Assembly (NCBI GenBank): GCA_007571095.1
Contig: RKSB01000122.1
Location: 1 to 27,931 of the forward strand
DNA: 27,931 bases
Direction of reading: 5' to 3'
DNA from: K189A clade bacterium
GTDB taxonomy: Bacteria; Pseudomonadota; Gammaproteobacteria; Pseudomonadales; Azotimanducaceae
Each line of letters starts with the position of its first letter. The first letter of the stretch is position 1. The translations under genes were made by a program, and so were the position numbers. Shown one piece after another: positions 2,716 to 19,344 of the stretch. Below the pieces are notes generated by a model. That model saw nothing but the letters and a program-made list of their open reading frames with translations. It was not told the DNA's origin and searched no databases.

Positions 2716-4461
2716 TCAGGTGCTTTCGGAAAGGATGCCGGCTGGCATCTGACTGCTTGGGGGCGCATCGACTCTCACCGGAGTGGCCGCTTTTTTCTCC
2801 ACTCGATAGGCTCGGTCGGCTATCTGAATAAGCTTGTCGTGATGTGATACGGCCAGTATGGCCATGTTGTCTCGCTGCTTGAGATATTCAAAAATTCTCT
2901 GCTCGCTCTGGGCATCCAGTGCATTGGTGGCTTCATCCAGAATCAGCAGTCTTGGTGAGTGCAGCAGGGCTCTGGCAATCATGATTCGCTGCCTTTGGCC
3001 GCCGCTGAGCTTCAGGCCTCTTTCTCCTGCCACCGTGTGCACGCCGTTTTCCAGTTCGGCTATGAAGTCTGTCGCACCAACGGACTCCAGTGCTTCGGCA
3101 ACGTCTCTGTCGCTGAACCGAGATTCACCCAGCAGGATATTGTTGAGAATTGTGTCATGCAGCAGGATTCCTTCCTGCGATACATAGCCAATGTGTTGCC
3201 TGTAGAAGTCCTGTCGAACCTCTTTCATGTTGACGCCATCCACTCTGACCGCGCCTGCAGTGGGCTGTCGAAGCCCGATGATGAGATCAACAATGGTGCT
3301 TTTACCGGCACCGGAAGGCCCGAACAGAAAAGTCAGCTGGCCGAACTCAAGCACCATCGAGAGGTTTTCCAGCACAGAGTCCCGGTCGTCGTAACTGAAA
3401 AAGACTTCAGCCAGTTCAACGCCCCTGGAAAGCCTGATTTTCGATCTTCCCGAAGACCTTTCCGACTCGGCGCGAGCCTTGGCGATGCTCGACAAAACCG
3501 CAGAATAGGCGTTCTTGTCGACGAGTGCCTGTTGATACTGTTTTTGTGCTTTTCCGCCGCAGCTGAGAATGCGGTAGAGCAGTACAGCCAAAGTGACGAT
3601 GGAGGCCAGAGTGATGCTGAAGTAGCTGGTGGTCAGATAAATCCCTCCCAGTACGGTGAATACAAAAATGGTCTGTTGCAGGGCGTTCATGGCGGCGGCA
3701 CTGAGGCCCTCCAGTTTGAGTGCCGATTCAAGCTGCCGGGCATTGTTGCTGGTTGTCTCGATTACCAGACGTTCTCTCGCCATCGCCTTGAAGATCTTGA
3801 TCGAGTGAATCGCATTGGCCAGGTCTGCAACCAGAGATCTGTAGGCTCTTACCTGCCTTTTGCCGGCTTTGCGGGCAAGCCGGGTCAAGCCACTTAAAGC
3901 TATCCAGATGCCGGCAAACATGGCACTGACCAGCAGGGTTGCCTGCCAGGCGACTGCCAGTGCAGCCAGCATGTAGATAAGGGTGGTGATAAGCAGGGAT
4001 ATGGTCGTCATAAGGCGCAGGTAGCAACTGGATGAACGGCTGATTTCAATGGACATGGCATTGAGCAGTTCGCCACTGGACTGGCCTGCAAAATAGGCCC
4101 ACCGAGCATTGGCCAGAACGCCCAGCAACTCAAGCCGAAGGTGAGTCTCTATGCGGGCAGCCACATAAAAAATCTTCTTTTGTGCGAACAGTAAAAGCAC
4201 GCTTTTGAACATAAAGCCGGCCGCTATGACCAGAGTGATGTTACCCATCGTGGGCTCGACTCCGAACGTCCGAAAGGAGTCGAAAATCCATTCCGCCAGA
4301 CCCTCTTCTTCGCCTGTCACCTGGCTGTCATTGGCTCGCTCGGCGAGCGTCAGCAGCGGCAGAATGGAGGCCACACTCAAGCCTTCACTTACGTTGCCAA
4401 GCAAAAGCAACAGTAGCACCAACAGGCTCTGTCTTGGATAGGACAATAAAAAACCGGACAT
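2716..4461 (-). CDS. ABC exporter, fused TMD+NBD (MsbA-like lipid/glycolipid flippase family)
   Basis: Hydrophobic N-terminal half; GPSGAGKST, LSGGQRQRIMIARAL, LLILDEATNALD and SHH motifs. Confidence 0.9.
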   Translation of the reverse strand: MSGFLLSYPRQSLLVLLLLLLGNVSEGLSVASILPLLTLAERANDSQVTGEEEGLAEWIFDSFRTFGVEPTMGNITLVIAAGFMFKSVLLLFAQKKIFYVAARIETHLRLELLGVLANARWAYFAGQSSGELLNAMSIEISRSSSCYLRLMTTISLLITTLIYMLAALAVAWQATLLVSAMFAGIWIALSGLTRLARKAGKRQVRAYRSLVADLANAIHSIKIFKAMARERLVIETTSNNARQLESALKLEGLSAAAMNALQQTIFVFTVLGGIYLTTSYFSITLASIVTLAVLLYRILSCGGKAQKQYQQALVDKNAYSAVLSSIAKARAESERSSGRSKIRLSRGVELAEVFFSYDDRDSVLENLSMVLEFGQLTFLFGPSGAGKSTIVDLIIGLRQPTAGAVRVDGVNMKEVRQDFYRQHIGYVSQEGILLHDTILNNILLGESRFSDRDVAEALESVGATDFIAELENGVHTVAGERGLKLSGGQRQRIMIARALLHSPRLLILDEATNALDAQSEQRIFEYLKQRDNMAILAVSHHDKLIQIADRAYRVEKKAATPVRVDAPPSSQMPAGILSEST

Positions 4462-4487: not shown

Positions 4488-5573
4488 CTAATAAGAAAAC
4501 ATGCTCTTTGAGCGGGCGAGGTAGTACCGAAGAAGCCCCAGTACCGCCAGCATGCCACACGGAATCAAGCTGCTGACAAGAGGGTTGAGTTGCCAAAGCA
4601 GGCTGAATCCGGCGACAAGATGTGCTGTCAGAGCGCAGAATACACCAGTGCCTGCGCAGATCAAAAGCACTCCGCCCAGGTGCTCTCTTTGCGGTGTCGT
4701 CAGGACAAAAGCGGCACTCAGAAATATCATTCCGGCAATGGTCAGGGGAGAAAGGGCGCGCTGCCAGAACAGCAGGTGCGCCTGCCGATCCTCGGTATCT
4801 CTCTGAACGGCACTCCTGTGTCTGTTCCACAGTTCGCCGAGAGACAGGGTATGAACAGGCATCTCATATATTCTGCTTTCCAGATCGCTCACAGGTGGCT
4901 CCATTGTCTGGCTTTCCAGATAAAGGCTTTCGGCTTCATCCGATTCCAGCTGCTGTTTCATGACCTGTTCCAGCCGCCATTGTCCGTCCTCTTCAAAGGT
5001 CACCGAATTTGCTCTGGTCCATTTGCTCAGAGTGCCCTTGTCGCCCAGTTCGTAAATCACAAGATCGCCGGATCCGCCGCCTCGTTGAAGATCCGATATT
5101 CGAACAATCCTGTTTTTGTGTCGAAGCCAGAAGGCATCCTGATTGAGCAAACCGGCATGCAGGGTACGTTGTGCCTTGTAGAGTTCAGCATTCTGGTGCA
5201 AAGCGGGTGCTATCCACTGTTGAAGCAGAAAGACCATCAGGATCAGAGGCAGACTGCCGATGCCCACGGTGCCTGCAATATAGCCCAATCCTCTGCCGGA
5301 GGACATGATGCCGATAAGTTCGCTGTGCCGAACAAGCGAGCCGAGAGTCCAGAGAATTCCGAAGAGAGCAACGAAGGGAGCAACGCTTAAGAACTGGCGA
5401 GGCGTGGTCATCACGACGTACCAGACGGCATCCATGGTCTGGTAGGTGCCGACTCCTGTGTTGTTTAACTGTTCAATGAAGGTAAAGACATTGAAAAGCA
5501 GGCTGAAAGCGACCAGACAGAGTAGCTGCCCCTTGATGACTTCGCTGATTATGTAACCCGCCAGTACAGGCAT
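4488..5573 (-). CDS. lptG: LptG-family permease (YjgP/YjgQ family), probably a second, specialised paralogue
   Basis: Three N-terminal TM segments, LGSLVRHSELIGIMSSG motif, beta-rich periplasmic region (FWLRHKNRIVRI), three C-terminal TM segments; tandem with an lptF-like gene. Confidence 0.85.
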   Translation of the reverse strand: MPVLAGYIISEVIKGQLLCLVAFSLLFNVFTFIEQLNNTGVGTYQTMDAVWYVVMTTPRQFLSVAPFVALFGILWTLGSLVRHSELIGIMSSGRGLGYIAGTVGIGSLPLILMVFLLQQWIAPALHQNAELYKAQRTLHAGLLNQDAFWLRHKNRIVRISDLQRGGGSGDLVIYELGDKGTLSKWTRANSVTFEEDGQWRLEQVMKQQLESDEAESLYLESQTMEPPVSDLESRIYEMPVHTLSLGELWNRHRSAVQRDTEDRQAHLLFWQRALSPLTIAGMIFLSAAFVLTTPQREHLGGVLLICAGTGVFCALTAHLVAGFSLLWQLNPLVSSLIPCGMLAVLGLLRYYLARSKSMFSY

Positions 5574-5574
5574 A

Positions 5575-6666
5575 TCATCGACTCCTTAACCGACCGACCA
5601 GCAGCGGTCGCAGGTAGAGAAAGCCGGTTATTACTGCGAGCAGACAGGAGACCAGCCAGAGGCCGGGAAACCGGTTCAGATTACCCTGTTCGATCGAGTT
5701 CTGAGTAACGGATATCAGATAAAAGGTCACCGCATAGAGTGCGAGCCCGGAAAGTATTCTTATATTGGTACTTGAGCCTGGTTGGGCGCGACTCAGGGGA
5801 ACTGCCAGAACACACAGCAGAAAGCTGACAAGCGGCCAATTGAGTCGACTTTGCAACTCGGCGGCTTCCTTGTTGGACTCCCTGTTCAACAGGCTTGCGG
5901 TTGGAAGCGTCTTGCGTTTGTTGATGTTCAGCTGTCTGCGCAGGCCGTCTGTAGAGAAGTTCAGCTGATCGAAAACGCTCTCCCGATAAAACTGGCCATT
6001 CTCCCTGAGCCAGTAAATGGCCCCTGAATAAAGCTTGACATGGCTCTGCTCAATTGAACTCAAGGTCAGAATAGCTCTTTTTGCGGTAATAATTCTGGCT
6101 TCCTGAGGATCATCCATATAGAGAAAAATATCGGACATTTCCTTGGTTTCCTGATCAACGATACTCATTTCCTGAGTGCTGAGAACCCAGGAGTCTTCGC
6201 CGAGGGGCACAAAGGCACCCGAGTCCGACGGTGCAAACTCTATGCTCTGCAACAACCGCTCTTCAAGCTGATAAATCTTCTGGTAGGCCCAGGGCCTGAC
6301 CCACAAGGTCAAAGAGGCGGTCAACAGCATCAACACACTCGCCGCAAGTACGACCGGCTTGGCCAGCCGCCATTCGCTCCAGCCGAGGCACAGCATGACC
6401 GGAAGCTCGGAGTCGCGATACAGTCGATTGAGGCTCAGGACCACTCCAGAGTAAAAGGCACTCGCCAGCAGAATAGGGGCTGCAACCAGAAGGTTGTAAG
6501 CCAGTAGCTGCAACAGGGTAAAGGCCGAAGAATGACCCAGGGCGTTGGAGATTTCGTTGCCAAGAATGGCGGCCAGTGTGTAGCATAAGAAGATGACAAA
6601 CAGTATGGTCAGTGCTACTCCTGACGGCTTGATGGCCTGGCTCCATATATACTGGTCAACAACCAT
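5575..6666 (-). CDS. lptF: LptF-family permease (YjgP/YjgQ family), probably a second, specialised paralogue
   Basis: N-terminal MVVDQYI, LNRLYRDSELPVMLCLG motif, WVRPWA, AELQSRLNWPL..LAVPLS; 1-bp gap to lptG. Confidence 0.85.
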   Translation of the reverse strand: MVVDQYIWSQAIKPSGVALTILFVIFLCYTLAAILGNEISNALGHSSAFTLLQLLAYNLLVAAPILLASAFYSGVVLSLNRLYRDSELPVMLCLGWSEWRLAKPVVLAASVLMLLTASLTLWVRPWAYQKIYQLEERLLQSIEFAPSDSGAFVPLGEDSWVLSTQEMSIVDQETKEMSDIFLYMDDPQEARIITAKRAILTLSSIEQSHVKLYSGAIYWLRENGQFYRESVFDQLNFSTDGLRRQLNINKRKTLPTASLLNRESNKEAAELQSRLNWPLVSFLLCVLAVPLSRAQPGSSTNIRILSGLALYAVTFYLISVTQNSIEQGNLNRFPGLWLVSCLLAVITGFLYLRPLLVGRLRSR

Positions 6667-6765
6667 TTAGTAGAGGGTCGGTTACAGACACAACGACCCT
6701 TATTCTAGCCTTTGACCGAGAAGCTTGTGTCGGCATGGCGGTTTCTCTCTTTATGGTTTCTCTCT

Positions 6766-7872
6766 ATGGATTCCAGGTCTCCTGTTGTTTGGGTACTGCT
6801 CGGTGAAAAGCCGGGCGACAACAATCAGCTTGCCGTGCTGGCGGAAGATTTGGCCTGGCCTTACACAGCAGTGTCCCTGCGCTACAGAAGTTACGAACTC
6901 CTCACCAACCTGCTGCTTCGAAAAACCCTGCTTGGGCTGGCGGCCGGATCAGAACTTCAGATTCAGCCTCCCTGGCCTGACCTGATCCTGACTGCCGGCA
7001 GACGGAATGAACCCGTTGCGCGGTGGATCCAACAGCAGTCTCGACAGAGGACGAAGATAGTTCATCTGGGGCGTCCGTGGACACACCCCAGGCATCTTGA
7101 TCTGGTGGTGGTGTCTGGCCAATACCCTCGAGTACCCGCGTTACCCAATGTCATTCGCAACAGGCTTCCGCTCACTCGGTTTCCAGACGGCAAGCTGGCG
7201 GCGGCAAAAAAACGCTGGAAAAGACTGGAAGCCCTGCCATCCCCTCGCTATGCTCTGCTCATCGGCGGGCGCGACGGCGGTGCTCTGCTCGATAACAGGC
7301 GGGCGAAGGCTCTGCTGAAGGCAGCCAACAGCCTGGCTGAAGAGACAGCCGGCAGTTTGCTGATTACCACCAGTGCTCGAACACCCGCCGGCATCCAGAC
7401 ACTGTTTCCAGAGTGTATCAAGGTGCAGCATTCCACATTTTTCTGGGGTACTGAGGCACCCAACCCCTATTTCGCCTATCTCGCCTATGCAGATGAACTG
7501 ATCGTGACCGGAGACAGCATCTCCATGCTGGCTGATGCCTGTTTTACCGGCCGACCGGTGCATATTTTCAGTCTGCGCTCTGCGTTGCCAGAGGGCGAAG
7601 GAGAGCCTTGGTTCGCAAGATGTCAGCGCGGTGTTTTGTCGAGTCGGGCGATTCAGGATCGGATTGCCCGGCTGATCACACCCGCCCGTATGCACCGTGA
7701 TCTGGAGTCACTCCACCGCCACCTGATAAAAAGCGGTTCGGCGGTCTGGCTGGGCCAGAAGGCAGAGAAAAGCCACCGCCCTCTGTCGATGAGGCAAGAC
7801 CTGAAAAGGACATCGTCGGCGGTCAAGTCCCTGATGAGCCTGAACGACCAGGCACCTCCCCTGTTCGACTAG
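6766..7872 (+). CDS. ELM1-like (DUF1022) protein, predicted GT-B fold nucleotide-sugar-binding enzyme
   Basis: VWVLLGEKPGDNNQ, PWPDLILTAGRR, LLIGG, ITTSARTP, NPYFAYLAYADELIVTGDSISMLADA match the ELM1 family pattern. Alternative TTG start at 6712. Confidence 0.75.
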   Translation: MDSRSPVVWVLLGEKPGDNNQLAVLAEDLAWPYTAVSLRYRSYELLTNLLLRKTLLGLAAGSELQIQPPWPDLILTAGRRNEPVARWIQQQSRQRTKIVHLGRPWTHPRHLDLVVVSGQYPRVPALPNVIRNRLPLTRFPDGKLAAAKKRWKRLEALPSPRYALLIGGRDGGALLDNRRAKALLKAANSLAEETAGSLLITTSARTPAGIQTLFPECIKVQHSTFFWGTEAPNPYFAYLAYADELIVTGDSISMLADACFTGRPVHIFSLRSALPEGEGEPWFARCQRGVLSSRAIQDRIARLITPARMHRDLESLHRHLIKSGSAVWLGQKAEKSHRPLSMRQDLKRTSSAVKSLMSLNDQAPPLFD

Positions 7873-8819
7873 GCACTTCCCCTGCTGATAGACTTGAGCG
7901 GAAAACGAGGCCAGGCTTCCAGCGACTGAACGCTGGTCAGCAGTTTCGGAGCATCGTGGCGAATGTGATTGGCTGCCATTTCGGCTTCCAGTTCTTCGGC
8001 AGTGATGATGTTTCGCTCCATACATTCCTTGAGTAAGCCGAAGAAGAGTTGCTCCTGATTGGTATCGGGATGCTTTCTGTAGTGACCCAGAAAAGCGTAT
8101 TCGCCAAACAGCTTTCTCTTGAGAATCAACATCCAGCGAAGAGGCGGAAAGTAGCGGGAACGTTCCGCCAGACGCCAGTCTACCGGTAATCCGGTTTTCC
8201 ACGGCTGGGTGGCTCTTTTGGTGTTGTGCAGCATCTTGGTTGTGCTGCTCAGCCGGTCAAAATCATTCCACTCGTTTTCAAAGTGCCCAATGCTGTCTTC
8301 GTCTTCTTTCAGCAGGCAGATCCAGTCGTGGTAGTCGAGTTCACCCTTGAACATTGATTTGAAAGAGTCTTCGGCGTTCCAGTGCCGAAGCCGACTGTTG
8401 TCCAGCAGCATCACCGAGGTGGCTTTGCACCTGTGCTTCGAACTCAGAATGCTTCGAGAGCGCATTCGGCACAGAATGGCCTTGCCCTGCATATCCCTGT
8501 TCAGTAGCTGCCATATGTCATCGACGGCGAAAATATCCGGATCGATCACCACCGACCGGCCTTCGTAACCCATCAACTGGGGCGGCAGAAAGCGCAATGG
8601 AGTAAAGGATTGCAGGTCGTCGTACAGCCAGGTCCGCCAGACTCCATCACGCAGATAGTCTTTTCCGTCATGACTTTTGACCCAGTCATAGTCCTGAGTG
8701 CTGATGATTTTTACGGCAAAGCGGTCGGCGTGATTTGAATTCCTCTTCAGGGCATAGGCAGCTACTTTGGCACCCAGCATTTGCTTGGGATTGGTGTGTA
8801 TGAAGACGCAGTGATCCAT
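7869..8819 (-). CDS. GT-A-fold glycosyltransferase-like protein (GT8-like)
   Basis: SFTPLRFLPP followed by a DxD motif (VIDPDIF), TSVMLLDN and LHNT..TQPWK; GGAGG SD upstream of ATG 8819. Confidence 0.6.
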   Translation of the reverse strand: MDHCVFIHTNPKQMLGAKVAAYALKRNSNHADRFAVKIISTQDYDWVKSHDGKDYLRDGVWRTWLYDDLQSFTPLRFLPPQLMGYEGRSVVIDPDIFAVDDIWQLLNRDMQGKAILCRMRSRSILSSKHRCKATSVMLLDNSRLRHWNAEDSFKSMFKGELDYHDWICLLKEDEDSIGHFENEWNDFDRLSSTTKMLHNTKRATQPWKTGLPVDWRLAERSRYFPPLRWMLILKRKLFGEYAFLGHYRKHPDTNQEQLFFGLLKECMERNIITAEELEAEMAANHIRHDAPKLLTSVQSLEAWPRFPLKSISRGSA

Positions 8820-8935
8820 GAGGCCTCCAGAATAAGGGGAGTGTGGCAGCAGACAGACTTCAAAAAAGAATAGCACCTGCCTGCCTGTTCACCAAGTTTA
8901 CCCTGTTGCTGTACCTCTCTTTCTTTCAGCCTGCT

Positions 8936-9880
8936 TCAGCGGATAAGCTTCTTGCGCCAGAGTTTGAACAGAAAGCCCCACAGAAAAAGCCATGGCCATT
9001 TGTACACTCGACGGGGAATTTCAATCGGTTCACCACTGTGTCGCCCGATCTTGTAAGCCATATAGTCAAGGGCGTTATCGAAGGTAAAGACAGCCTTACC
9101 CAGCCTCAACAGGGAGAGCCACTTGCCGAGAAAGGCTCGAAGGCTCCATCGAACTTGCGATCTGATTCTGCTTGCAGGCTTCAGCATGCGATACCGGTCA
9201 GCGGACACTTTCTCCACTTTCTCGGGAATACTTTCAAGAAAGCTTTGGCCGGCAGCTGAAAAGTAGCTTTCGGATTGTCCGATCAGTTGGGTTACTCGTG
9301 CCTCCTTCTCAGGCCTCAGTTCGGCTCTGTAGCTGTATAACAGGGACTTGTGCCAGAGGTCGAGCGGGCTGAAAGTGGCTTCCATCAGCCCGAGCCCTTC
9401 GTTCAGCAGCCGACTGGTGGCGTCTGCCAGCATTTGATGAATACGGGCCATGTCTTCGGGTTTTTTGAGCCTTGCCAAAGCAACCGGCTGGGCCATTCGG
9501 CCGAAGATATGGCTGTGAAACCATTGGCGAGAACCGGCTTCCAGCTGCTGCATTGAAATGACAGCATACTTGCACCGAAACAGCCCGTCCGGTAGCTCCA
9601 GCTGACGAAAAAAGACATTCGGCGGCAACAGCCGCCCGACCAGCCTCAGGAGCTTTTTGTTGCTCCAGATACGGTCATAGCTTGAGACTATGACAAAAAA
9701 GTCCGCTATTCCGTCAACGACTTCCTCTTGCCACAGGCAGGAGCCATAAAACAAAACGGCTACCAGATCGTCTTCATAGTCTTTACAGACATCTTCCGCC
9801 AGTGCTCGAAGAGGCGCGACTATTCGGCCACTGGCTTCGAGCAAAGCCTGCTGTCGGAATTGGAACAGGTTGCGAGCCAT
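8936..9880 (-). CDS. Tam41/Mmp37-like phosphatidate cytidylyltransferase-fold nucleotidyltransferase
   Basis: Pol-beta-type NTase signature LFYGS...ADFFVIV, plus KYAV and GRMAQPV, which resemble Tam41 KYGV and GRLQKPV. Confidence 0.65.
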   Translation of the reverse strand: MARNLFQFRQQALLEASGRIVAPLRALAEDVCKDYEDDLVAVLFYGSCLWQEEVVDGIADFFVIVSSYDRIWSNKKLLRLVGRLLPPNVFFRQLELPDGLFRCKYAVISMQQLEAGSRQWFHSHIFGRMAQPVALARLKKPEDMARIHQMLADATSRLLNEGLGLMEATFSPLDLWHKSLLYSYRAELRPEKEARVTQLIGQSESYFSAAGQSFLESIPEKVEKVSADRYRMLKPASRIRSQVRWSLRAFLGKWLSLLRLGKAVFTFDNALDYMAYKIGRHSGEPIEIPRRVYKWPWLFLWGFLFKLWRKKLIR

Positions 9881-9886
9881 TCTGTG

Positions 9887-10828
9887 TCAAGTCAGCTTGA
9901 GAAACCCCAGAGGGCGGCTGCTGGATACCCTGACACCCTTTTCGGTGGTGCCAATCTCGCCGTCTATCACAAAATCTCCTGAAAACCCGAAGTGTGCATT
10001 TACAAAGGAGGTACTGTGGTAGTGCTCGGAGTTGGCCATCCATTTCGGTATTCGGTTGACCAGAATGGCCGTCAGGGCGGCCAACAGCTTTGGCGGCTGT
10101 TCGCCTATTTCTGTGTAGTAGATGGCTCCTCCTTCGGACCAGTGGTAGCGAAGACGAAAAAGCATTCTGTCCAGCGTGCTGGCTGCTATCACGCTACAGT
10201 TCAGCTGACGGGCGGGTCGGCCGTCCAGAATGACCTCGACAGGCAGGCCGCCGCCGGCGGTTCCTCTCAACATTCGGCCCAACAGCTTGAGGCCGCTCAG
10301 CATGCCGGCCCATTCCTGCCCGAGCCGAATAGCCTTGTCCTTGTTTTCGAAGTTGCGGACGGCTTCAGTGGTTACGCCTATGGCGAATACAAAACCAAAA
10401 CGGTCAGGCATACCGGTTGCCTCAATGCGCAACAGGCTGCGCCGTCGAACGGGCCAGGTGTTCGCTGGTCGAGCCGTTATCGCCTGAAGTCGGAAAAGAG
10501 ATCGCTCGGCACTCAGAAAGCCGTGCAGGTCGAGTGCCGACAGGTTGGTTGAACCAAAAGGCAGCAGGGCGATCATCGGCAAAGGGGAGTCCTCCTGCTG
10601 TTGAGACAACAGGGCGGTCAACACCGTGTGAACAGTGCCGTCACCGCCCGCAATGACCAGCAGTCGGTCGGCATCTGTGCTCAGTTTCGGCAACAGGCTG
10701 GTGAGTTCCTCTGCATGCGTGGTTTCGTGGTAGCCACTCGTCGCCAGCTTTTGCAGTGCCTTCCTGTGTCTGTTTCGGTATTTCCGCCCCTTTCCGCTGG
10801 CCGGGTTGACGATGCATTGAATCTTCAA
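9887..10828 (-). CDS. Diacylglycerol/sphingosine kinase family lipid kinase (candidate ceramide kinase)
   Basis: IVNPASG, IAGGDGT, LLPFGSTN and C-terminal IDGE motifs. Probable TTG start at 10828; the ORF-track extension to 11032 overlaps the divergent gene. Confidence 0.85.
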   Translation of the reverse strand: MKIQCIVNPASGKGRKYRNRHRKALQKLATSGYHETTHAEELTSLLPKLSTDADRLLVIAGGDGTVHTVLTALLSQQQEDSPLPMIALLPFGSTNLSALDLHGFLSAERSLFRLQAITARPANTWPVRRRSLLRIEATGMPDRFGFVFAIGVTTEAVRNFENKDKAIRLGQEWAGMLSGLKLLGRMLRGTAGGGLPVEVILDGRPARQLNCSVIAASTLDRMLFRLRYHWSEGGAIYYTEIGEQPPKLLAALTAILVNRIPKWMANSEHYHSTSFVNAHFGFSGDFVIDGEIGTTEKGVRVSSSRPLGFLKLT

Positions 10829-10861
10829 TGTGCTGAAATGTTTTCGCCGATCACCGCTTTC

Positions 10862-10867
10862 ATTATA
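10862..10867 (-). promoter_or_regulatory. Possible sigma70 -10 box for the kinase operon
   Basis: Perfect TATAAT on the minus strand ~35 bp upstream of the kinase start; no properly spaced -35 box seen. Confidence 0.3.
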
Positions 10868-10994
10868 TGCCCGCCCGGCATGAACAAGAGCTTTCGACGG
10901 TATTCTGGCGGTATCATTGATGCTTGTTCGGCCAGCATATAGACTCAAGTACCTCAGCGTCGAATGAAGCATGCCGAATGGAGAAAGAGTCCGA

Positions 10995-12002
10995 ATGAAC
11001 ACCGGCACAGCAAACCAGCCATTTCGGTTCACACATATTTCTGATCTTCATCTGACGAATCCGAAGGCTGCCCTGAAAAGCCTCTGGATGATTTGCAACA
11101 AGAGAGTGCTGGGCTATCTTTCCTGGCAATACAGACGTCGATTTCTTCATAGCCCCAGCGTCCTTGAAACGGTTGCCCGAGCAGCCTGTTCGGACGGCGA
11201 TCATCTGGTAATTACGGGTGATTTGACTCAAATAGGCCTGCCGGAAGAGTATCGACAGACTTGTCAGTGGCTGTCCCGACTGGGTTCGCCGGCCAACATT
11301 TCGGTTATTCCCGGCAATCACGATGCCTACGCCGGTTCATCCTGGCGAGAGTGCATTCAGTCGTGGAAACCGCACATGTCGGATCGAATGCCTGAGCAGC
11401 AAGACCAGCCTTTGTGGCCCTTTGTCAGGCTTCGAGGTCCGGTTGCATTCATCGGCGTGTCGAGTGCCGTGCCGTCTCCTCCTTTTTTTGCTTCCGGTCG
11501 AGTAGGGCAGGACCAACTGCAAAGACTCGAACAAATGCTCGCCGACCATCAGTCTCGGTTTCGCGTTCTGCTGATTCACCATTCGCCTGTTGCCGGCCAT
11601 GATTCTTTCAGAAAAAGGCTCTTTCAGCGGTCGTCTCTGGTCAGGATTTTGCAGGCCAGAGGCGTCGAGATGGTGTTGCACGGCCACAACCACAGGCCCT
11701 GCTGGAACGAATTGAAAACCGCTTCCGGCTACATTCCGGTGATAGGTGTGCCGGCTGCTTCGGCTGCGGAGTCAGGTCCCGACGAGGCTTCGTTGAGCCG
11801 GCGAGGGAGCTACTATGCCTACCAGGTCGCCCAAACCGACGAAGGCTGGTGTCTGGAAGTGACTGCACACCGGCTGAATGCCGAAGGGACGGCGATGGAT
11901 CTTGTCTGGTGCAGACGTTACGGTCGCCTGCCGGCCTTGTCGATTAACTCCTGGATCATCTCCCAGTCGGCCAGGCTGTCTACATCGACGGCCGCCAGTT
12001 GA
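10995..12002 (+). CDS. Calcineurin-like metallophosphoesterase (CpdA/Icc-like)
   Basis: All five motifs present: ISDLH, TGDLT, PGNHD, LIHH, LHGHNH. Confidence 0.9.
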   Translation: MNTGTANQPFRFTHISDLHLTNPKAALKSLWMICNKRVLGYLSWQYRRRFLHSPSVLETVARAACSDGDHLVITGDLTQIGLPEEYRQTCQWLSRLGSPANISVIPGNHDAYAGSSWRECIQSWKPHMSDRMPEQQDQPLWPFVRLRGPVAFIGVSSAVPSPPFFASGRVGQDQLQRLEQMLADHQSRFRVLLIHHSPVAGHDSFRKRLFQRSSLVRILQARGVEMVLHGHNHRPCWNELKTASGYIPVIGVPAASAAESGPDEASLSRRGSYYAYQVAQTDEGWCLEVTAHRLNAEGTAMDLVWCRRYGRLPALSINSWIISQSARLSTSTAAS

Positions 12003-12700
12003 TCGGGAATCAGGATCGGCTTGACTCGACAGCCTGTATAGCGGGATGCTCCCGTAAAAATATCCTGTAGCGAAGACCGGCCCATAGCAAACTTCAGCAA
12101 CGGCCACCAGCCTATGGCCGAGACGATTCGTAATGGCCTTTTTCGGTGCTGCTGAATTTCCCCCCATTTGTTTACCGCCTGAAGTGCCTCCGGTGTCATC
12201 AGGGCGAACAGGTTGCAGCTGCTGTAATCGCCATCGGTGCAACGATAGGAGGTTCGATTGCAGGCGATAGACGGATTTGCCTTTTTGTCGAGCCTGACCA
12301 TTCCGACGGTGCAATCGGCATCGCTTGCCAGAGACGAATTGCGAAAAGTGTCTACCCAGTCTCTCTGCAACAACGCAGAGTCGCCGGTGGTCACCAGTAG
12401 CGGCGACTCCAGCCCCAGCCTGTCAATGCCTTTGGCGACACTTGACGGCAGGGATTTTTCACCCTCTATCCAGATTGAATCGGGCAGCTGCTCAAAGTCC
12501 TTGTGTCGTCTGAGCAGGTGAATATTGCCGATGATCCTGATTCGAGACAACCACGGCAGGCTTTCCAGTGTGTCATACACTCTTCGCAGCATGGATTTGT
12601 CGCCGATCTGTGCAAGGGCTTTGGTGGCCACCTGAGCCCGCACGGCAACCGCATCCTGAGCCGTTCTCCTGCCGGCGAGTATCAGTGCGTTCCAGGTCAT
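11918..12700 (-). CDS. MobA-like NTP transferase (nucleotidyltransferase), 260 aa
   Basis: ALILAGRR at the N-terminus, KAL..IGDKSML, LLVTTGD, C-terminal DVDSLAD. ATG 12700 overlaps the upstream TGA (ATGA), indicating translational coupling. Confidence 0.8.
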   Translation of the reverse strand: MTWNALILAGRRTAQDAVAVRAQVATKALAQIGDKSMLRRVYDTLESLPWLSRIRIIGNIHLLRRHKDFEQLPDSIWIEGEKSLPSSVAKGIDRLGLESPLLVTTGDSALLQRDWVDTFRNSSLASDADCTVGMVRLDKKANPSIACNRTSYRCTDGDYSSCNLFALMTPEALQAVNKWGEIQQHRKRPLRIVSAIGWWPLLKFAMGRSSLQDIFTGASRYTGCRVKPILIPDQLAAVDVDSLADWEMIQELIDKAGRRP

Positions 12701-13890
12701 TGGCGAGACTCGGGTTGCAGTAGTTTTCGATACATTCGATAAGTCTTGTGTACTCTGCCGTTCGTCATCTTTACAGCGGACGAGCCTGCCTGGCGATTGC
12801 TCTTCAGTATCCAGGACATTTCGACACTGTGCATACGTCTTTGTCGGGCGTGCATGAAGATCGCCGAAAGCAACGCCTGAATTGCATGGGTACCGAGTGG
12901 AGTTTTGTGAAACTTTTTTCTGATACCCATCAGCGGCAGGCGACCCGTTTGAATAGCATTGGTGCCGAGGCACCAGAGCAGTTTCAGCCACCCCAGCGGC
13001 AACAGCCGACTCTTCAATTTATGCAGGACCTCGTTGAGATTGGGAACCAGCATCGCAAAGCCGACCGCTTCGGATTCGTATTCGGCGATTTGAATCAACT
13101 CCGCCTTGCCCAGCAGACGTACCTTTTGAAGGTTTTCCCTGAGTTCTTTTTCGCCGAAGGGTACAAATCCCCAGTTTTCGCTCCATGCATCGTCAAAGAT
13201 GCCCTTTATTGTTCGATTTTCGTCGGCCAGCCGGCTGTAGTTGATTGGGCGTACAACCAGATTCTCGTGCCTGTATCCAGACCTTCTGTTGAATACTGCG
13301 AGCATTCGTTTTTTGGACTCTTCCAGCCTTTTCAGGGCGAGTTCGGTTTCAGCGATAAAGGCCAGTGCTTCGGCGGCGGTTTCGTAGCCACAGGCCTCAA
13401 CTCTGGGAGCAAACCAGGGAGCTGTGTGTGGAGTCATCAGGTAAGGAGGAGACTCAAAACCTTCCACCAGCAGTCCGATCTCCTGATTGATATTCAGGTT
13501 CATGGGCCCGACAATCTCCTTTATGCCTCGCTCTGCCAGCCAGGACTCAGCCGTTTTCAGCAAAACCCTGAAGGTTTCCTGATTGTCTTCGGCTTCAAGT
13601 AGCCCGAAGTAGCCGCGATTTCTGTTTTGGCTCTTTTCCAGGTCGTCAATCTGTGCAGAAATTCTGCCGACCGGACATCCGCCCCTGTAAGCGATCCAGG
13701 CCTGCCATCGACCGTGTTCGAAAAAGGGATTTCGTCTGGAAAAAGCCAGCCACCTTTCCCAGTAGAGCCTGGGTACCCAGTGAGGATCGTTAAGGTAGAA
13801 CTGACCTGCAAGCTGAATGAAAACCTTGCGATGTGCCGAGTTTGATACCGCCTGAATGGCAACTTCTGACTCCGGTATCGGATGAATCAT
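12697..13890 (-). CDS. bcerS: GNAT-fold N-acyltransferase, bacterial ceramide synthase (bCerS)/YghO family
   Basis: Y..DPHWVP, NPFF, GRISAQID, GYFG, GPMNLNINQEIGLLVEGF, FDDAWSENWGFVP, EMSWIL and KTYRMY are typical of this family; genomic context agrees. Confidence 0.75.
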   Translation of the reverse strand: MIHPIPESEVAIQAVSNSAHRKVFIQLAGQFYLNDPHWVPRLYWERWLAFSRRNPFFEHGRWQAWIAYRGGCPVGRISAQIDDLEKSQNRNRGYFGLLEAEDNQETFRVLLKTAESWLAERGIKEIVGPMNLNINQEIGLLVEGFESPPYLMTPHTAPWFAPRVEACGYETAAEALAFIAETELALKRLEESKKRMLAVFNRRSGYRHENLVVRPINYSRLADENRTIKGIFDDAWSENWGFVPFGEKELRENLQKVRLLGKAELIQIAEYESEAVGFAMLVPNLNEVLHKLKSRLLPLGWLKLLWCLGTNAIQTGRLPLMGIRKKFHKTPLGTHAIQALLSAIFMHARQRRMHSVEMSWILKSNRQAGSSAVKMTNGRVHKTYRMYRKLLQPESRQ

Positions 13891-14386
13891 GCTCAAGGTT
13901 TTTTTGCATAAGGCACCAGGAAGGGCCTACTCCGGCCATTTATAACAGTTTTTGCCTGTTTCCGCCTGAAAAAAACCTGCCCGAACCGACAATAGCCCGC
14001 TTTTGCTTCTCAAGAATTCTGATTGGATCCTTGCCACAGTTTGTTTGATGACTCAGGGCAAAGGGTTTCCGAAGAATCTGTTTGTCGAGTCGCTGGCGGA
14101 ACCTTCCACTCAAAAAATTCGCAGAACAGACTCGCTCCTGAGCAAATACCTAACAAAATATGGAATATTTAAGAAACTATTGAGAAATTATTTTGATGTG
14201 CTAAAATATCTGCTGAAATTCGCACCCTCCTGCCGAAGAAATTCTCTGAAAATACAGGGATAATTGAAAGTTAGCAGAAGCAGGTTATAGGAAGGCTGCA
14301 GGAGGAAGGTCCTGCGGAAATAAAGAATCAGGAAGCAAGAGATTACAGAAAGCAACGGAGAAGTTTTGAGTTTTGGAGGTGAAGCT

Positions 14387-14449
14387 ATGCCCGGCCAATT
14401 CGGCGACACTTCAGTGTTTTTTTGTGGCAGGTCTTGCTTCTCCTGTTAA
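14387..14449 (+). CDS. Possible 20-aa small ORF (MPGQFGDTSVFFCGRSCFSC)
   Basis: Strong SD GGAGGTG at 14375-14381, 5 nt before ATG; no homology evidence. Confidence 0.25.
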   Translation: MPGQFGDTSVFFCGRSCFSC

Positions 14450-14463
14450 TTAACGGCTATAAT
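14434..14463 (+). promoter_or_regulatory. Putative sigma70 promoter for the acyl-AMP ligase/reductase operon
   Basis: TTGCTT (14434-14439)-N18-TATAAT (14458-14463), ~140 bp upstream of ATG 14604. Confidence 0.55.
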
Positions 14464-14603
14464 TGCAGGATTAATCTCTTGAATGGGGGATTGACCTGAG
14501 GAAATCCTCGGTGAAGGCCGCCTCAACGAAAGTGGGCTGAGGGGTCTTGACCGGAGTATTCTGACTGCTACGCCGAGTGGCAGCAGTTCGGGGGCAAAGA
14601 ACA

Positions 14604-16433
14604 ATGACAAGTCGAACGAGTATAGACGACGACGGATTGAACAATTCCGAAGGGCTGGCCCCCTTGCATCTCGATGATGCGAGTACAAAGCCAGAATTGC
14701 TGGTTCCAACACCCACTCTGAGTGGCATACCTCTTCGTCTCGGCGGCTTCAAAACCCTGTCCGAAGCACTCGACTATGCGGCCGAAGGCGAGGCCGGTTT
14801 CAACTTCTACAATGGTCGGCACGGTGCACTCAGCGACGTGCTCAGCTACAAGAAGATCAGGACCGAAGCCCTGTCAGTAGCCCGCAAGATGAGAGCCTTT
14901 GACCTGCCTCGCGGAAGCAGGGTCGCCATCATCGCCGACACCAAGCCCGAATTTGTCATCTTCTTTATGGCCTGCCAGTACGTGGGGCTGATACCCGTCC
15001 CGTTGCCTGCCGCCGTCAACTTTAACGGACGAGAAGCCTTCATCTATCAGACGAGGCTGTTTGTGCAGGATTGTGAAGCCAAAATCTGCCTCGCCTCAGA
15101 CGAATTCGTCAAGTATCTGGCCGAGGCCTGCGTCGGCCTCAAGCTGGCCTTTCAAGGTGCCTGCCGAGACTTCTATGACCTGCCTGAAGACCCGAGGCCA
15201 CTGGAACCCACCAGTCCAAAGGAAAACGCTTATATCCAGTACACCTCAGGTAGCACAAATTTTCCAAGGGGAGTGATTATAGAGTCGGGTTCTGCGATGT
15301 CCAATCTGTCCAGAATTCTACAAGACGGAATTCAGGTGAGGGTTCCGGATCGTTGTTTTTCCTGGTTGCCTTTCTATCACGACATGGGCTTGGTGGGCAA
15401 AATGATGTCAACGCTGGTCGGGCAGGGCAGCATTGACTGCCTCGACAATCGGAAATTTGCCATTCGTCCAAACATCTGGCTCAAGCTGATGAGCGAAAAC
15501 AAATCGACCATCTCTTTCAGCCCGCCTTTTGGCTACGAGCTTTGTCTGCGCCGACTGCACCCGGAACAGGCTGAACAGTACGATCTGTCGCACTGGCGTA
15601 TAGCGGGTGTAGGTGCTGAGATGATTCGAAGCTCGATACTGAATCGCTTTGCCGAAGCTCTGGAGCCGGCAGGCTTTAGAAAGGAAGCCTTCACACCCTG
15701 TTATGGCATGGCCGAAAGTTCGGTTGCGGTGACCTTCTCGAAGCTTGGCAAGGTGTTTGATACCGACAGCATAGACCGTGAAAAGAGTGCTACCGAGGGA
15801 ATGGCTGTTCAGGGCCCTGCCGAGGATGCAGGTACTCGAACTTTTGTTGCCTGCGGATACCCGCTGCCCGATCACGAGATTCAAATTCGGGACGCCGACC
15901 ATCGCCCCTTGTCGGCCCGCCACATAGGCAGGGTTTTTGTTCGAGGTCCCAGCATTATGTCGGGGTACCTCAACAAGCCTGAATTGACCAGTGAGGTTTT
16001 GGTCGACGGTTGGCTGGATACGGGTGATCTTGGTTACTGTACCGAGGATGGTCAGCTGTTCATAGTCGGTCGTGGCAAGGACATGATCATCATCAACGGT
16101 CGCAACATCTGGCCACAGGATCTGGAGTATACCGCCGAGGCTCAGCCGAGTGTCCGCTCAGGGGACGCTCTGGCCTTTGGCTTGTCTGACAACGGCGAAG
16201 ATTCGGAAAAGGCGGTTATTGTTATCCAGACTCGAGAGAAGGATGCAGAAAAACGTCAGAACCTGATCCGGTCGATCAAGCAAACAATCTTTGAGCACTC
16301 GGGTATTCAGTGTCACGTCAAGCTTGTACCCGCTCACACTCTGCCTCGAACCTCTTCCGGCAAGCTGTCTCGCTCAAAGGCTCGCTTCAATTTCATTCAG
16401 TCTAACGACGGTGCCGAAGTAGCAAACGGCTAA
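14604..16433 (+). CDS. Fatty acyl-AMP ligase / acyl-ACP synthetase (FAAL)
   Basis: YIQYTSGST, SWLPFYHDMGL, CYGMAE followed by a FAAL-type insertion, DTGDLG, GRGKDMIIINGRNIWPQDLE, PRTSSGK. Alternative GTG start at 14577. Confidence 0.9.
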   Translation: MTSRTSIDDDGLNNSEGLAPLHLDDASTKPELLVPTPTLSGIPLRLGGFKTLSEALDYAAEGEAGFNFYNGRHGALSDVLSYKKIRTEALSVARKMRAFDLPRGSRVAIIADTKPEFVIFFMACQYVGLIPVPLPAAVNFNGREAFIYQTRLFVQDCEAKICLASDEFVKYLAEACVGLKLAFQGACRDFYDLPEDPRPLEPTSPKENAYIQYTSGSTNFPRGVIIESGSAMSNLSRILQDGIQVRVPDRCFSWLPFYHDMGLVGKMMSTLVGQGSIDCLDNRKFAIRPNIWLKLMSENKSTISFSPPFGYELCLRRLHPEQAEQYDLSHWRIAGVGAEMIRSSILNRFAEALEPAGFRKEAFTPCYGMAESSVAVTFSKLGKVFDTDSIDREKSATEGMAVQGPAEDAGTRTFVACGYPLPDHEIQIRDADHRPLSARHIGRVFVRGPSIMSGYLNKPELTSEVLVDGWLDTGDLGYCTEDGQLFIVGRGKDMIIINGRNIWPQDLEYTAEAQPSVRSGDALAFGLSDNGEDSEKAVIVIQTREKDAEKRQNLIRSIKQTIFEHSGIQCHVKLVPAHTLPRTSSGKLSRSKARFNFIQSNDGAEVANG

Positions 16434-16538: not shown

Positions 16539-17462
16539 GTGCAGCCTCGCCTGACGGTTGCCGTTACCGGTGCTACGGGATTCATAGGTCGCCACCTGAT
16601 TGCGGCACTTTCGGCGGCTGAATATCGAGTCAAGGCTCTGACTCGTCATCGCCGTCCGCCTGATTTACCAGTAGAGTGGGTTCGGGGCGACCTTGGCCAG
16701 CCGACCAGCCTGATGCAACTGGTTGAGGGCACCGATTACGTGATCCATTGCGCAGGCCAGGTTCGAGGCCTGCTTTACCGGCATTTTGCCGAGACCAATG
16801 TCGCCGGTTGCCGAAATCTGGTGCAGGCTGTCTCTCAATGCTCTTTCCGGCCTTGCCTGCTGATGATCTCCAGTCTGGCCGCCCGGTCTCCGGAATTGTC
16901 TGCCTATGCCGCCAGCAAGCGCGACGGAGAAGTTTTTTTGCAGAAGGCGACCGATCTGAACTGGACGATTTTTCGGCCAACCGCAGTCTATGGCTCCGGT
17001 GACTCCGAGCTAATGCCTCTGTTTAACGCCGTTGCCCGAGGTCTGATTCCCCGAATTCGACACGATGGCAGGCTCTCTCTGCTTTATGTTGAGGATCTGG
17101 TGGCTGCAATCACGGCCTGGTTGTGTTCTCCACAACAGGCTTTCGGTAAAATTTACGAGCTTTCTGATGGCCGATGCAATGGCTATAGCCTGGATGAAAT
17201 CATTGCCCTCATTCTGCGACTCAAGCAACCTGTTCGAGTGCCTGTTCCTCTGCCCAAAAACCTGTTGCTGGGAGTGGCCAGAGTAAACGCTGCTCTGGCC
17301 TCTGTTGTCGGTTACTCGCCCATGCTGACACCGGGCAAGCTTCGGGAAATGTGGCATCCAGACTGGACTTGTTCTTCCGATGGCGGTTCGGATTTTGGCT
17401 GGTCGCCCGAGTATCAGCTTGAGAAGGGCCTGAGTGCCGCCTGGTCGAACGAGTCGTCCTGA
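16539..17462 (+). CDS. NAD(P)-dependent epimerase/reductase (extended SDR); ceramide reductase CerR-like by context
   Basis: TGATGFIG Rossmann motif, ISSLAA, YAASK (YxxxK), RPTAVYG. The family call is strong; the CerR assignment is contextual. Confidence 0.8.
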   Translation: MQPRLTVAVTGATGFIGRHLIAALSAAEYRVKALTRHRRPPDLPVEWVRGDLGQPTSLMQLVEGTDYVIHCAGQVRGLLYRHFAETNVAGCRNLVQAVSQCSFRPCLLMISSLAARSPELSAYAASKRDGEVFLQKATDLNWTIFRPTAVYGSGDSELMPLFNAVARGLIPRIRHDGRLSLLYVEDLVAAITAWLCSPQQAFGKIYELSDGRCNGYSLDEIIALILRLKQPVRVPVPLPKNLLLGVARVNAALASVVGYSPMLTPGKLREMWHPDWTCSSDGGSDFGWSPEYQLEKGLSAAWSNESS

Positions 17463-17550: not shown

Positions 17551-17973
17551 TCAGTCGTCGATCAGGGCGGTCGCAGTGCCTCTGAGCACTTCCTGGTCTT
17601 TCTGGTTGACGGTGACCACGGAAAGGTTGACCAGCAGTTCACCCTCTTCCTGAAGTATTTCCTCCACGGTAGCGGTCGCGGTGAGCGTGTCGCCCGGCCA
17701 TACCTGGCTGGTAAAGCGAACTCCGTACTTTCTCAGTCGTCCGTCTCCTACGTAATCGGTCAGCATTTTCGCAGTCATACCCATGGTCAGCATGCCGTGT
17801 GCGAAGACCGAAGGGTATCGGGCCACCTGTGTGGCGAAAACCTCATCCGTGTGGATTGGGTTGTAATCGCCCGAAGCCCCTGCGTACTGCACGAGCTGAG
17901 TACGTTTCAGGTCTTTGACCAGCTCCTGCGTGCAGGTGTCGCCTGTTTTTAATTCGCTTGCTTTTAATGCCAT
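17551..17973 (-). CDS. MaoC-family (R)-enoyl-CoA hydratase/dehydratase
   Basis: YAGASGDYNPIHTD hydratase motif, AHGMLT, VRFTSQVWPGDTL. Confidence 0.9.
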   Translation of the reverse strand: MALKASELKTGDTCTQELVKDLKRTQLVQYAGASGDYNPIHTDEVFATQVARYPSVFAHGMLTMGMTAKMLTDYVGDGRLRKYGVRFTSQVWPGDTLTATATVEEILQEEGELLVNLSVVTVNQKDQEVLRGTATALIDD

Positions 17974-17979
17974 GGTTGC

Positions 17980-18486
17980 CTACTTCTGTTCAATGGTTTT
18001 TTCGGTGACTACTCCGACCATGCGAGCGGTTACCACCAGTTCGCCCTTCTGGTCTCTGTATTCGGTAATGCTTTCGCTGAACCTTAACGTACCTGCCCGC
18101 CTGGATTCCTTGGACCATTTTTTGCCGGGTCGATTGGTTGCGGTCAGCACATCACCCGCTTGAGGGTGTCGGTGATATTCAAAATGCTGCTCGGCATGCA
18201 ACATTCCACTGCTCGCTCCACCGCCTGCTCCGCCCGATCCTTTTTTTCGCTCGATACCGCTGGGTTTTCCGCCGGAACCAAACCAGGGTTCGCCGATTTT
18301 TGGGCGCAGGGGATAGTTGGGGTCGAATTGCGCACTCGCCTGGACGAATGTTGGTGGTGCAATCACAGCCTGAGGCTCGGTGTCGGCGGCATAGTCTGCG
18401 TCAGAGTAAATCCGGTTGGGATCCCCCACCGCTCTTGCAAAGGTCATGATGTGTCCCGCTTCAACGGGGAATTTTATATTCGACAT
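17980..18486 (-). CDS. MaoC-like hot-dog dehydratase partner subunit (MaoC_dehydrat_N/FAS1-like)
   Basis: FARAVGDPN, APPTF, LHAEQHFEYHR..AGDVL. Confidence 0.8.
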   Translation of the reverse strand: MSNIKFPVEAGHIMTFARAVGDPNRIYSDADYAADTEPQAVIAPPTFVQASAQFDPNYPLRPKIGEPWFGSGGKPSGIERKKGSGGAGGGASSGMLHAEQHFEYHRHPQAGDVLTATNRPGKKWSKESRRAGTLRFSESITEYRDQKGELVVTARMVGVVTEKTIEQK

Positions 18487-18579
18487 GAACAAACATTCCT
18501 GTAATTTTCATTCACTTGATGGCCCGATCTTTTTCAAAGTCAGCACTTAAACCCTGTGTACTCTATCAAAACCGGAAGA

Positions 18580-19344
18580 CTAGCGAGGAGCAAATCTCTG
18601 CCCACTGTCAACTCTTACGGTTGAGCCGTTCATCATGGCACACTCAAAGATGGCGATTGCCATCACGGCGAACTCGTGTGGCCTGCCCATGCGGCGCGGA
18701 AAAGCCGCATCTTTGGTCAGCTGAGTCGAAAAGCTGTCGGGTATGCCGGCGGTCAGCCCGGTATCAAACAGGCTGGGGGCGATGGTCATTGCCCGAATGC
18801 CGGCGGCACCCAGATCTCTTGCCAATACCAGCGTCATTCCGGCGATGCCGGCTTTGGCGGCGGCGTAGGCAACCTGACCTATCTGGCCTTCAAAGGCGGC
18901 AATGGATGCCGTGTTGATCATGACACCGCGTTCACCTTCGGCATTCGGCTCGTTGGCACTCATGTGCCGTGCACAGACTCTGTTGACGTTGAAAGAGGAG
19001 ATCAGATTGAGATCGACAATTCTCTGGAATTCCTCCAGGGGATGCATTTTACCGGTTTTGTCCAGAGTCCTGATGGCCAGCCCGCCACCTGCCGTATTGA
19101 CACAGAAGTGTAATCCGCCAAGGTCTTTCACCGCCGAGTCTATGACTCGTTCCGTCGCTTCATAATCCATCACGTTGCAGGCATGGAATTTGCCGCCCAA
19201 AGCGTCGGCAACAGCCTGACCGTCAGAGCTTTCGAGGTCGAGAATGGCCACCTCGCCGCCCTTTTCAACAAACATTTCGGCGGTTGCCCTGCACATTCCG
19301 GAAGCGCCGCCGACCATGATGCCTTTACTACCCTTTATCTGCAT
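18580..19344 (-). CDS. SDR, 3-hydroxyacyl-CoA dehydrogenase type II (HSD17B10-like)
   Basis: GGASGMC, NTAGGG, GERGVMINTASIAAFEGQIGQVAYAAAKAG, RMGRPHEF. Confidence 0.9.
   Translation of the reverse strand: MQIKGSKGIMVGGASGMCRATAEMFVEKGGEVAILDLESSDGQAVADALGGKFHACNVMDYEATERVIDSAVKDLGGLHFCVNTAGGGLAIRTLDKTGKMHPLEEFQRIVDLNLISSFNVNRVCARHMSANEPNAEGERGVMINTASIAAFEGQIGQVAYAAAKAGIAGMTLVLARDLGAAGIRAMTIAPSLFDTGLTAGIPDSFSTQLTKDAAFPRRMGRPHEFAVMAIAIFECAMMNGSTVRVDSGQRFAPR

Follow-up and report, generated by a model that had tools for sequence, protein, structure and literature searches.

We analyzed a window of 27,931 nucleotides (positions 1 to 27,931 of contig RKSB01000122.1, assembly GCA_007571095.1) from K189A clade bacterium, a sponge-associated gammaproteobacterium, in which a lipid kinase gene is followed on the minus strand by a gene for a Tam41-like protein. 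Judged by sequence, the two genes very probably encode orthologues of CpgB and CpgC of the Caulobacter phosphosphingolipid pathway, and according to structure prediction the second protein clearly has the fold of Tam41, with a nucleotidyltransferase (NTase) domain and a winged-helix domain. The explanation that best fits the material as a whole, in which a cpgB/cpgC pair would act in a route through ceramide activated as a nucleoside diphosphate (NDP) derivative, perhaps cytidine diphosphate (CDP)-ceramide, has in our estimate a somewhat better than even chance of being right. The window forms a sphingolipid island around the pair, with genes for ceramide synthesis and export. Anionic sphingolipids let Caulobacter live without lipopolysaccharide and are there also the target of polymyxin-type peptides, and how the step that follows the ceramide kinase proceeds chemically is the chief unsolved problem in the Caulobacter pathway. 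The window locus adds nothing decisive on that chemistry; what it gives is strong structural evidence for the Tam41 fold of the family.

The Kinase and the Tam41-Like Gene Form a Conserved Pair

Both open reading frames are present on the minus strand, the kinase gene upstream and the Tam41-like gene beginning with an ATG codon, and are arranged as follows:

9887 to 10828, minus strand: predicted CpgB-type lipid (ceramide) kinase, with a DAGK_cat domain and a GGDGT motif; start uncertain
9881 to 9886, minus strand: 6-bp spacer between the kinase stop codon TGA (9889-9887) and the start codon ATG (9880-9878) of the Tam41-like gene
8936 to 9880, minus strand: predicted CpgC-type Tam41-fold nucleotidyltransferase of 314 aa, assigned by Pfam, profile search, AF2, Foldseek, and VIA-align

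The junction reads ...CTG ACT TGA cacaga ATG GCT..., which bears out the initial annotation of this DNA, where the two genes had been placed 6 bp apart on one strand; the spacing is exactly 6 bp. At its longest the kinase frame spans 9887-11032, from a GTG at 11032, and from the TTG at 10828 it spans 9887-10828. That TTG is the start used in the initial annotation and agrees with the point where the homologue alignments begin, while the alternative in-frame starts, ATG 10972 and GTG 11032, would make the kinase gene overlap with the divergent phosphoesterase gene, which starts at 10971; on sequence grounds we favor TTG 10828. Promoter and terminator scans of positions 6500-14600 predicted sites that were no more numerous than in shuffled sequence.

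A scan of species-representative genomes yielded 80 loci encoding relatives of the Tam41-like protein, distributed over the Gamma-, Beta-, and Alphaproteobacteria, Thermodesulfobacteriota, Myxococcota, and Nitrospirota, and all neighborhood counts given here cover the 43 of them that have enough flanking DNA. In 38 of the 43, the Tam41-like gene is preceded on its own strand by a homologous kinase gene, located about 1 kb upstream. Moreover, the database protein P0164 consists of a full-length kinase fused to a Tam41-like domain, and the window kinase aligns end to end with its kinase half (E 1e-24). Since the kinase is found upstream in 38 of the 43 loci and is also fused to the Tam41-like domain in P0164, the adjacency of the two genes is not a matter of chance. 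In a second fusion, the metagenomic protein P0199, the CpgC-like domain is joined to an NTase resembling Caulobacter CC_1153. Both fusions come from an exhaustive search and are single representatives, for which an assembly or gene-calling artefact is possible, and a word-based search returned no fused (longer) relatives of the Tam41-like protein. We also searched 300 genomes sampled evenly from the class to which the window belongs. The CpgC-like protein was present in nine of them, all nine of which also gave a strong match to Spt, a match that only 17 of the 300 genomes gave; as the sampled genomes are related and not independent, this co-occurrence is an indication and not a statistical test. 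The kinase-CpgC pair is thus kept across Pseudomonadota, Thermodesulfobacteriota, and Nitrospirota and, in the sample searched, only in genomes with Spt.

Structure Prediction Assigns a Tam41 Fold to the Second Protein

The Tam41-like protein matches the Pfam model Tam41_Mmp37 (PF09139) with 25.9 bits against a cut-off of 24 (E 8e-6), as do about half of its listed homologues; no NCBIfam model matches it, and a search of the PDB with the single sequence returned nothing relevant, so that a profile was needed. Among metagenomes and genomes, the word-based search returned 555 relatives of equal length, and the exhaustive search returned 933 cluster representatives. A profile of 37 homologues (A1) retrieved from the PDB the Tam41 of S. 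pombe (6ig2/6ig4, E 2e-7) and a Firmicute Tam41 (7ecd, E 7e-3). The invariant motifs of the family, namely YGS, D60, KY(A/G)V, W..Y..GR...P, and SY...R, align with identical residues in both solved Tam41s. In the family alignment YGS (at 45-47) and D60 are conserved and the second acidic position varies (S/D/E/G/R), while K104, R128, and R189 are invariant and, in the sequence alignment only, stand opposite K/R of both solved proteins. Just one of the three canonical acidic residues of NTases is invariant in the CpgC-like family, and the same has been reported for Tam41 (PMC11646218). At position 66 the window protein has S instead of the usual D, a substitution that its closest metagenomic relatives also carry.

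An AlphaFold (AF2) model computed on the A1 alignment reached a mean predicted local distance difference test (pLDDT) score of 92.4. When this model was submitted to Foldseek, three Tam41 entries took the top ranks (E 3e-9 to 6e-8, template modeling (TM) scores 0.50-0.58), followed by aminoglycoside nucleotidyltransferases with TM scores of about 0.3. VIA-align superposed model residues 18-267 on 7ecd with a Z score of 19.4 and a root-mean-square deviation of 3.1 Å over 231 residues, and gave Z scores of 16.9 and 16.6 for 6ig4 and 6ig2; the next class, ANT(4'), reached a Z score of 7.3 and matched the NTase half only. Both programs put Tam41 first, in agreement with the Tam41-like fold proposed in the initial annotation, and no other NTase class came close to the range of 16.6-19.4.

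The protein has no predicted transmembrane helix (maximum Kyte-Doolittle mean over 19 residues, 1.05). W/F/L and K/R are abundant in its last 22 residues, which have a net charge of +5, a sequence-level indication only; in Tam41 the membrane anchor is a basic amphipathic C-terminal segment (PMC7018664). The likeness to Tam41/TAMM41 includes the two-domain fold and, at the level of sequence, the GS motif, the single acidic residue, motifs of the KYGV, GRxxKP, and SYxxxR types, and a basic hydrophobic C-terminal tail on a protein predicted not to be integral to the membrane. Unlike Tam41, the window protein is encoded in a sphingolipid cluster and belongs to a family restricted, in the sample searched, to Spt genomes, and its presumed substrate is ceramide-1-phosphate and not phosphatidate, the host having CdsA for CDP-diacylglycerol.

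The Pair Very Probably Corresponds to cpgB and cpgC

The kinase matches the Pfam DAGK_cat model with 59 bits (cut-off 23.6), and the GGDGT nucleotide-binding motif is seen in its translation. In a tblastn search of the window, the P. luteola CpgB orthologue covered 10825-9899 with 27% identity (E 3e-19), and the window Tam41-like protein is 36-37% identical to P. luteola CpgC (E 7e-50 to 1.5e-49). The published order of the P. luteola orthologues is cerS, CC_1153-like, cpgD, lptF2, lptG2, cpgA, cpgB, cpgC (PMC11324152 Table S2F), and the P. luteola locus in our scan (L066) has exactly this order. Because the locus agrees with the published table and the window protein matches its CpgC, we identify the pair as cpgB-cpgC, and on these sequence grounds consider orthology with CpgB and CpgC very probable. 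The Pfam Tam41 model gave no match in any of 14 control genomes, Caulobacter included; since it is silent in Caulobacter, it provides no direct link between the window protein and CC_1161. Homologues of CC_1161 do carry the InterPro Tam41 domain (Olea-Ozuna et al., PMC11324152 S1 Text). Downstream of cpgC in the P. luteola locus (L066, 11001-15108) we also observed a gene for an Asp/Asn beta-hydroxylase-like (LpxO-type) protein and one for an 819-aa protein with a C-terminal ELM1 domain.

The ceramide kinase activity of Caulobacter CpgB (CC_1160/CCNA_01218) has been proven biochemically (bioRxiv 10.1101/2023.05.01.538943). Like it, the window kinase is of the DAGK_cat/LCB5 type, carries GGDGT, and is encoded immediately upstream of a CpgC-type gene; the identity is low (27%), as it is among all published orthologues (25-30%), and the start codon is uncertain. 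From homology and context we infer that the window kinase is a ceramide kinase. In Caulobacter, deletion of cpgC (CC_1161/CCNA_01219) leaves ceramide-1-phosphate in place, and ceramide phosphoglycerate and diphosphoglycerate are lost (PMC9393093). The window protein resembles CpgC in its Tam41 domain, its length of about 310 aa, and the position of its gene directly after a CpgB-type kinase, and differs from it in being a fast-evolving member of the family.

A Nucleotide-Activated Ceramide as the Possible Product

The reaction of Tam41 is the conversion of phosphatidate and cytidine triphosphate (CTP) to CDP-diacylglycerol and pyrophosphate. In the window organism, (dihydro)ceramide would be made by the neighboring bCerS, CerR, and AasR together with Spt and AcpR from another contig, and the kinase would phosphorylate it to ceramide-1-phosphate, as has been shown for the Caulobacter orthologue. 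The Tam41-fold enzyme, probably bound peripherally to the inner membrane through its aromatic and basic C-terminal tail, would then, by analogy with Tam41, move a nucleoside monophosphate (NMP), probably cytidine monophosphate (CMP) from CTP, onto ceramide-1-phosphate and release pyrophosphate, and a further transferase would displace CMP from the resulting NDP-ceramide (CDP-ceramide) and pass phosphoceramide to a hydroxyl acceptor. Such a route would be the sphingolipid equivalent of the CdsA to PgsA/PssA logic, where a lipid phosphate is activated with CMP and an alcohol then displaces the CMP, although the Tam41-like protein is not homologous to CdsA and no dedicated CDP-alcohol phosphotransferase is linked to it. 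The fold, the Tam41-type motifs, the genetics, the fusion, and the adjacency to the kinase all argue for the CDP-/NDP-ceramide step, to which we give about an even chance; the nucleotide used and the acceptor step we only infer. An NDP-activated ceramide made by CC_1161 has already been proposed (Olea-Ozuna et al., 2024, PMC11324152), and the CDP-ceramide idea, which the Tam41 fold makes plausible, is not new, having been published in 2024. If true, the route would involve a lipid intermediate, nucleotide-activated ceramide, that has so far been seen in no organism.

The genome encodes Spt (NF047599, 563 bits, above the curated cut-off), its gene preceded by an acyl carrier protein gene (acpR-spt) on a short contig (C155), and, given this and the ceramide cluster around the pair, the substrate is more likely to be ceramide-1-phosphate than phosphatidate. 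Alternatively, the pair could serve glycerolipid salvage, with a diacylglycerol kinase making phosphatidate and a Tam41-type enzyme converting it to CDP-diacylglycerol, as in Firmicute Tam41. The best structural match, 7ecd, is a solved bacterial Tam41 reported to make CDP-diacylglycerol (PMC11646218), and CpgB is reported to phosphorylate diacylglycerol besides ceramide (PMC11324152 S1 Text). However, the genome encodes an ordinary CdsA, nearly all related loci have the pair embedded among genes that make and export ceramide, the CpgC-like protein is found only in the Spt genomes of the 300-genome sample, and the Caulobacter deletion phenotype is specific to sphingolipids (PMC9393093). In view of the CdsA gene, the ceramide context, and the restriction to Spt genomes, we regard glycerolipid salvage as very unlikely.

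The protein might also be a pathway nucleotidyltransferase that acts on a different phosphate, for example a phosphorylated head-group intermediate, or with a nucleotide other than CTP. The cluster does contain a second, CC_1153-like NTase, which in P0199 is fused to a CpgC-like domain, and with two NTases and this fusion the division of labor between them is not obvious; in addition, several NDP-activated intermediates have been proposed (PMC11324152). On the other hand, cpgC deletion leads to accumulation of ceramide-1-phosphate and absence of all later species (PMC9393093), a phenotype that places CpgC immediately after the kinase. It is also with the kinase that the conserved adjacency and the P0164 fusion are found, and Tam41 itself acts on a lipid phosphomonoester, so we consider this alternative improbable.

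We judge it similarly unlikely that the Tam41-like protein itself attaches the head-group alcohol (glycerate, another acid, or a sugar) to ceramide-1-phosphate without free CDP-ceramide, possibly via an enzyme-bound nucleotidylated intermediate. This is the original model of Zik et al., in which 'CpgC adds glycerate'. In Caulobacter only cpgB and cpgC emerged as required for the first phosphoglycerate, and no separate transferase appeared in the screens (PMC9393093, PMC11324152); nor does a CDP-alcohol phosphotransferase gene follow the Tam41-like gene in the window. Yet esterifying a phosphomonoester directly is energetically unfavorable, as the authors of PMC11324152 noted, the fold and the conserved motifs are those of an NMP-transferring enzyme, and screens could have missed a transferase that is either essential or redundant.

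Several observations weigh against the route through NDP- or CDP-ceramide and the orthology on which it draws. The PF09139 match is barely above threshold and covers only profile positions 94-216 of 322, and the kinship with Tam41 is distant, at 16-18% identity. Orthology with CC_1161 is drawn through the P. luteola intermediate and synteny. The terminal branch of the window CpgC-like protein is very long, at 1.85 substitutions per site against a median of 0.34, and some functional drift is possible. Both a 2025 Journal of Biological Chemistry paper and a preprint that the same group posted in May 2026 call the mechanism of CpgC 'unidentified' (PMC12275187, PMC13228409), and our literature search returned no paper describing CDP-ceramide as a detected molecule. 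Finally, the pathway needs a second enzyme to consume CDP-ceramide; no such enzyme is known from Caulobacter, in which the first phosphoglycerate does not depend on CpgA (PMC11324152), and no CpgA orthologue that could do so was found in the window genome.

A Cluster without CpgA and CpgD and with Putative Glycosyltransferases

The other genes of the island are, in order along the window:

2716-4461, minus strand: MsbA-like ATP-binding cassette (ABC) exporter (Pfam and NCBIfam)
5575-6666 and 4488-5573, minus strand: LptF2/LptG2-type permeases (Pfam and NCBIfam)
6712 to 7872, plus strand: ELM1/GtrOC1-like putative glycosyltransferase of GT-B fold, convergent with the GT8-like gene
7869 to 8876, minus strand: GT8-like putative glycosyltransferase (GT-A fold), directly downstream of the Tam41-like gene
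10971 to 12002, plus strand: calcineurin-like metallophosphoesterase, counterpart of CC_1158 (Pfam Metallophos, 55 bits), divergent from the kinase gene
11918 to 12697, minus strand: MobA/CofC-like nucleotidyltransferase, counterpart of CC_1153 (Pfam NTP_transf_3), its start overlapping the stop of the bCerS-like gene
12697 to 13896, minus strand: bCerS-type GNAT N-acyltransferase (ceramide synthase), with a weak Pfam GNAT match
14577-16433, plus strand: AasR-type acyl-ACP (acyl carrier protein) synthetase (Pfam AMP-binding), 47% identical to P. luteola AasR (E 3e-165)
16539-17462, plus strand: CerR-type epimerase/reductase (Pfam Epimerase)

Thus the locus shares with that of cpgC the bCerS, CC_1153-like NTase, CC_1158-like phosphoesterase, LptF2/G2, AasR, and CerR genes, but it is without CpgA (PF01066) and CpgD and has the GT8-like and ELM1/GtrOC1-like genes instead. 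CpgA is a PF01066 protein (CDP-alcohol phosphotransferase) with an N-terminal extension, and CpgD is a CTP:phosphoglycerate cytidylyltransferase. Pfam and NCBIfam annotation of the window agrees with the initial annotation that it contains no CDP-alcohol phosphotransferase, and when P. luteola CpgA and CpgD were searched against the genome (tblastn, E 1e-6) neither gave a match in the 1.68-Mb assembly of 224 contigs, which is 92% complete. In a check for a CDP-alcohol phosphotransferase elsewhere in the genome, the only PF01066 genes were pgsA, pssA, and a pgsA-like fragment, none of them linked to the pair. The fragment (L002, contig C100, 1432-1941, minus strand) breaks off where the contig ends, adjoins a semialdehyde dehydrogenase gene, and scores 79.6 bits against TIGR00560, below the cut-off; we rejected it as a hidden CpgA, with which it has only the CDP-alcohol signature motif in common. 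As the CC_1153-like NTase is present here without CpgA and CpgD, its role is not limited to making the second phosphoglycerate.

CpgA and glycosyltransferases seldom occur together. Twenty-one of the 43 loci have CpgA only, 11 have glycosyltransferases only, ten have neither, and a single locus has both, so that the two types of neighborhood are nearly exclusive. When a quick tree was built from the CpgC-like proteins, most of the glycosyltransferase-type loci were placed together in a group of 22 rows that has no CpgA-type member (Shimodaira-Hasegawa approximate likelihood ratio test, 93); the window protein has a long branch in this tree and its position is unsure. These data hint at a second type of cluster, whose head group would be different and probably glycosylated; we offer this as a lead only, not as a result. 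This cluster variant, without CpgA and CpgD and with glycosyltransferases, is the only mildly new element of the analysis. It is a place to seek the downstream enzyme and the final lipid. The window itself could represent such an undescribed cluster type, in which the adjacent GT-B (ELM1/GtrOC1-like) or GT-A (GT8-like) enzyme would use the activated ceramide phosphate made by the Tam41-like enzyme to give a phosphosphingolipid with a new, probably glycosylated head group; we hold this to be a long shot, which, if true, might reveal the 'condensing' enzyme long sought in the phosphosphingolipid pathway.

For the GT8-like gene the likely start is ATG 8819 (residue 20), and its product contains an IDPD (DxD-type) motif. 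The protein has no Pfam or NCBIfam match, and its ESM Atlas model matches a 'Glycosyl transferase family 8' cluster with TM scores of 0.89/0.94. A GT8-like gene is found directly downstream of the CpgC-like gene also in Roseovarius loci and in one further locus (L078). The ELM1-like protein matches Pfam Mito_fiss_Elm1 with 185 bits, and its AF2 model (pLDDT 87) retrieved generic GT-B enzymes with Foldseek (BshA, MshA, MurG, MGD1, LpxB; TM 0.4-0.5), among which no specific relative such as TagF stood out. Eight related loci have an ELM1-like gene directly downstream of the CpgC-like gene. In two loci (L050, L019) a 917-aa frame had the appearance of a CpgC-ELM1 fusion, which we rejected as an overlapping open frame in another reading frame. 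Four ELM1-like paralogues are present in the genome (contigs C20 and C10 included), two of which adjoin sphingolipid genes; acpR-spt has as its divergent neighbor a second ELM1-like gene (L006, contig C155, 2-997, minus strand), which scores 120 bits with Pfam.

Other Genes of the Island

The bCerS, CC_1153-like NTase, LptF2/G2, AasR, and CerR genes recur in related loci, and of the 43 neighborhoods 34 contain the CC_1153-like NTase, 28 contain LptG2, and 23 have the phosphoesterase next to the kinase. Over 383 aa, the bCerS-like protein shares 39% identity with the P. luteola CC_1154 orthologue (E 7e-76). For the CC_1153-like NTase, the P. luteola orthologue covered 12694-11927 of the window in a tblastn search (E 9e-38), and the window protein is 35% identical to the N-terminal half of P0199. 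CC_1158, the counterpart of the phosphoesterase, has been described (PMC11324152 S1 Text); the phosphoesterase and CC_1153-like genes are convergent, and as called their 3′ ends overlap by 85 bp (11918-12002). The LptF2/LptG2-type permeases and the MsbA-like exporter presumably form a sphingolipid export unit; LptF2/G2 are described as acting in Caulobacter sphingolipid transport (bioRxiv 10.64898/2026.04.12.717747).

Just beyond CerR (17551-19350) there are two MaoC/FAS1-type dehydratase genes and a short-chain dehydrogenase/reductase (SDR) gene, whose products may tailor sphingolipid acyl chains or be unrelated to the pathway. At the edge of the lipid island (802-2460) we observed a gene for an AAA_21/AAA_15 ATPase of the OLD/AbiEii-like kind.

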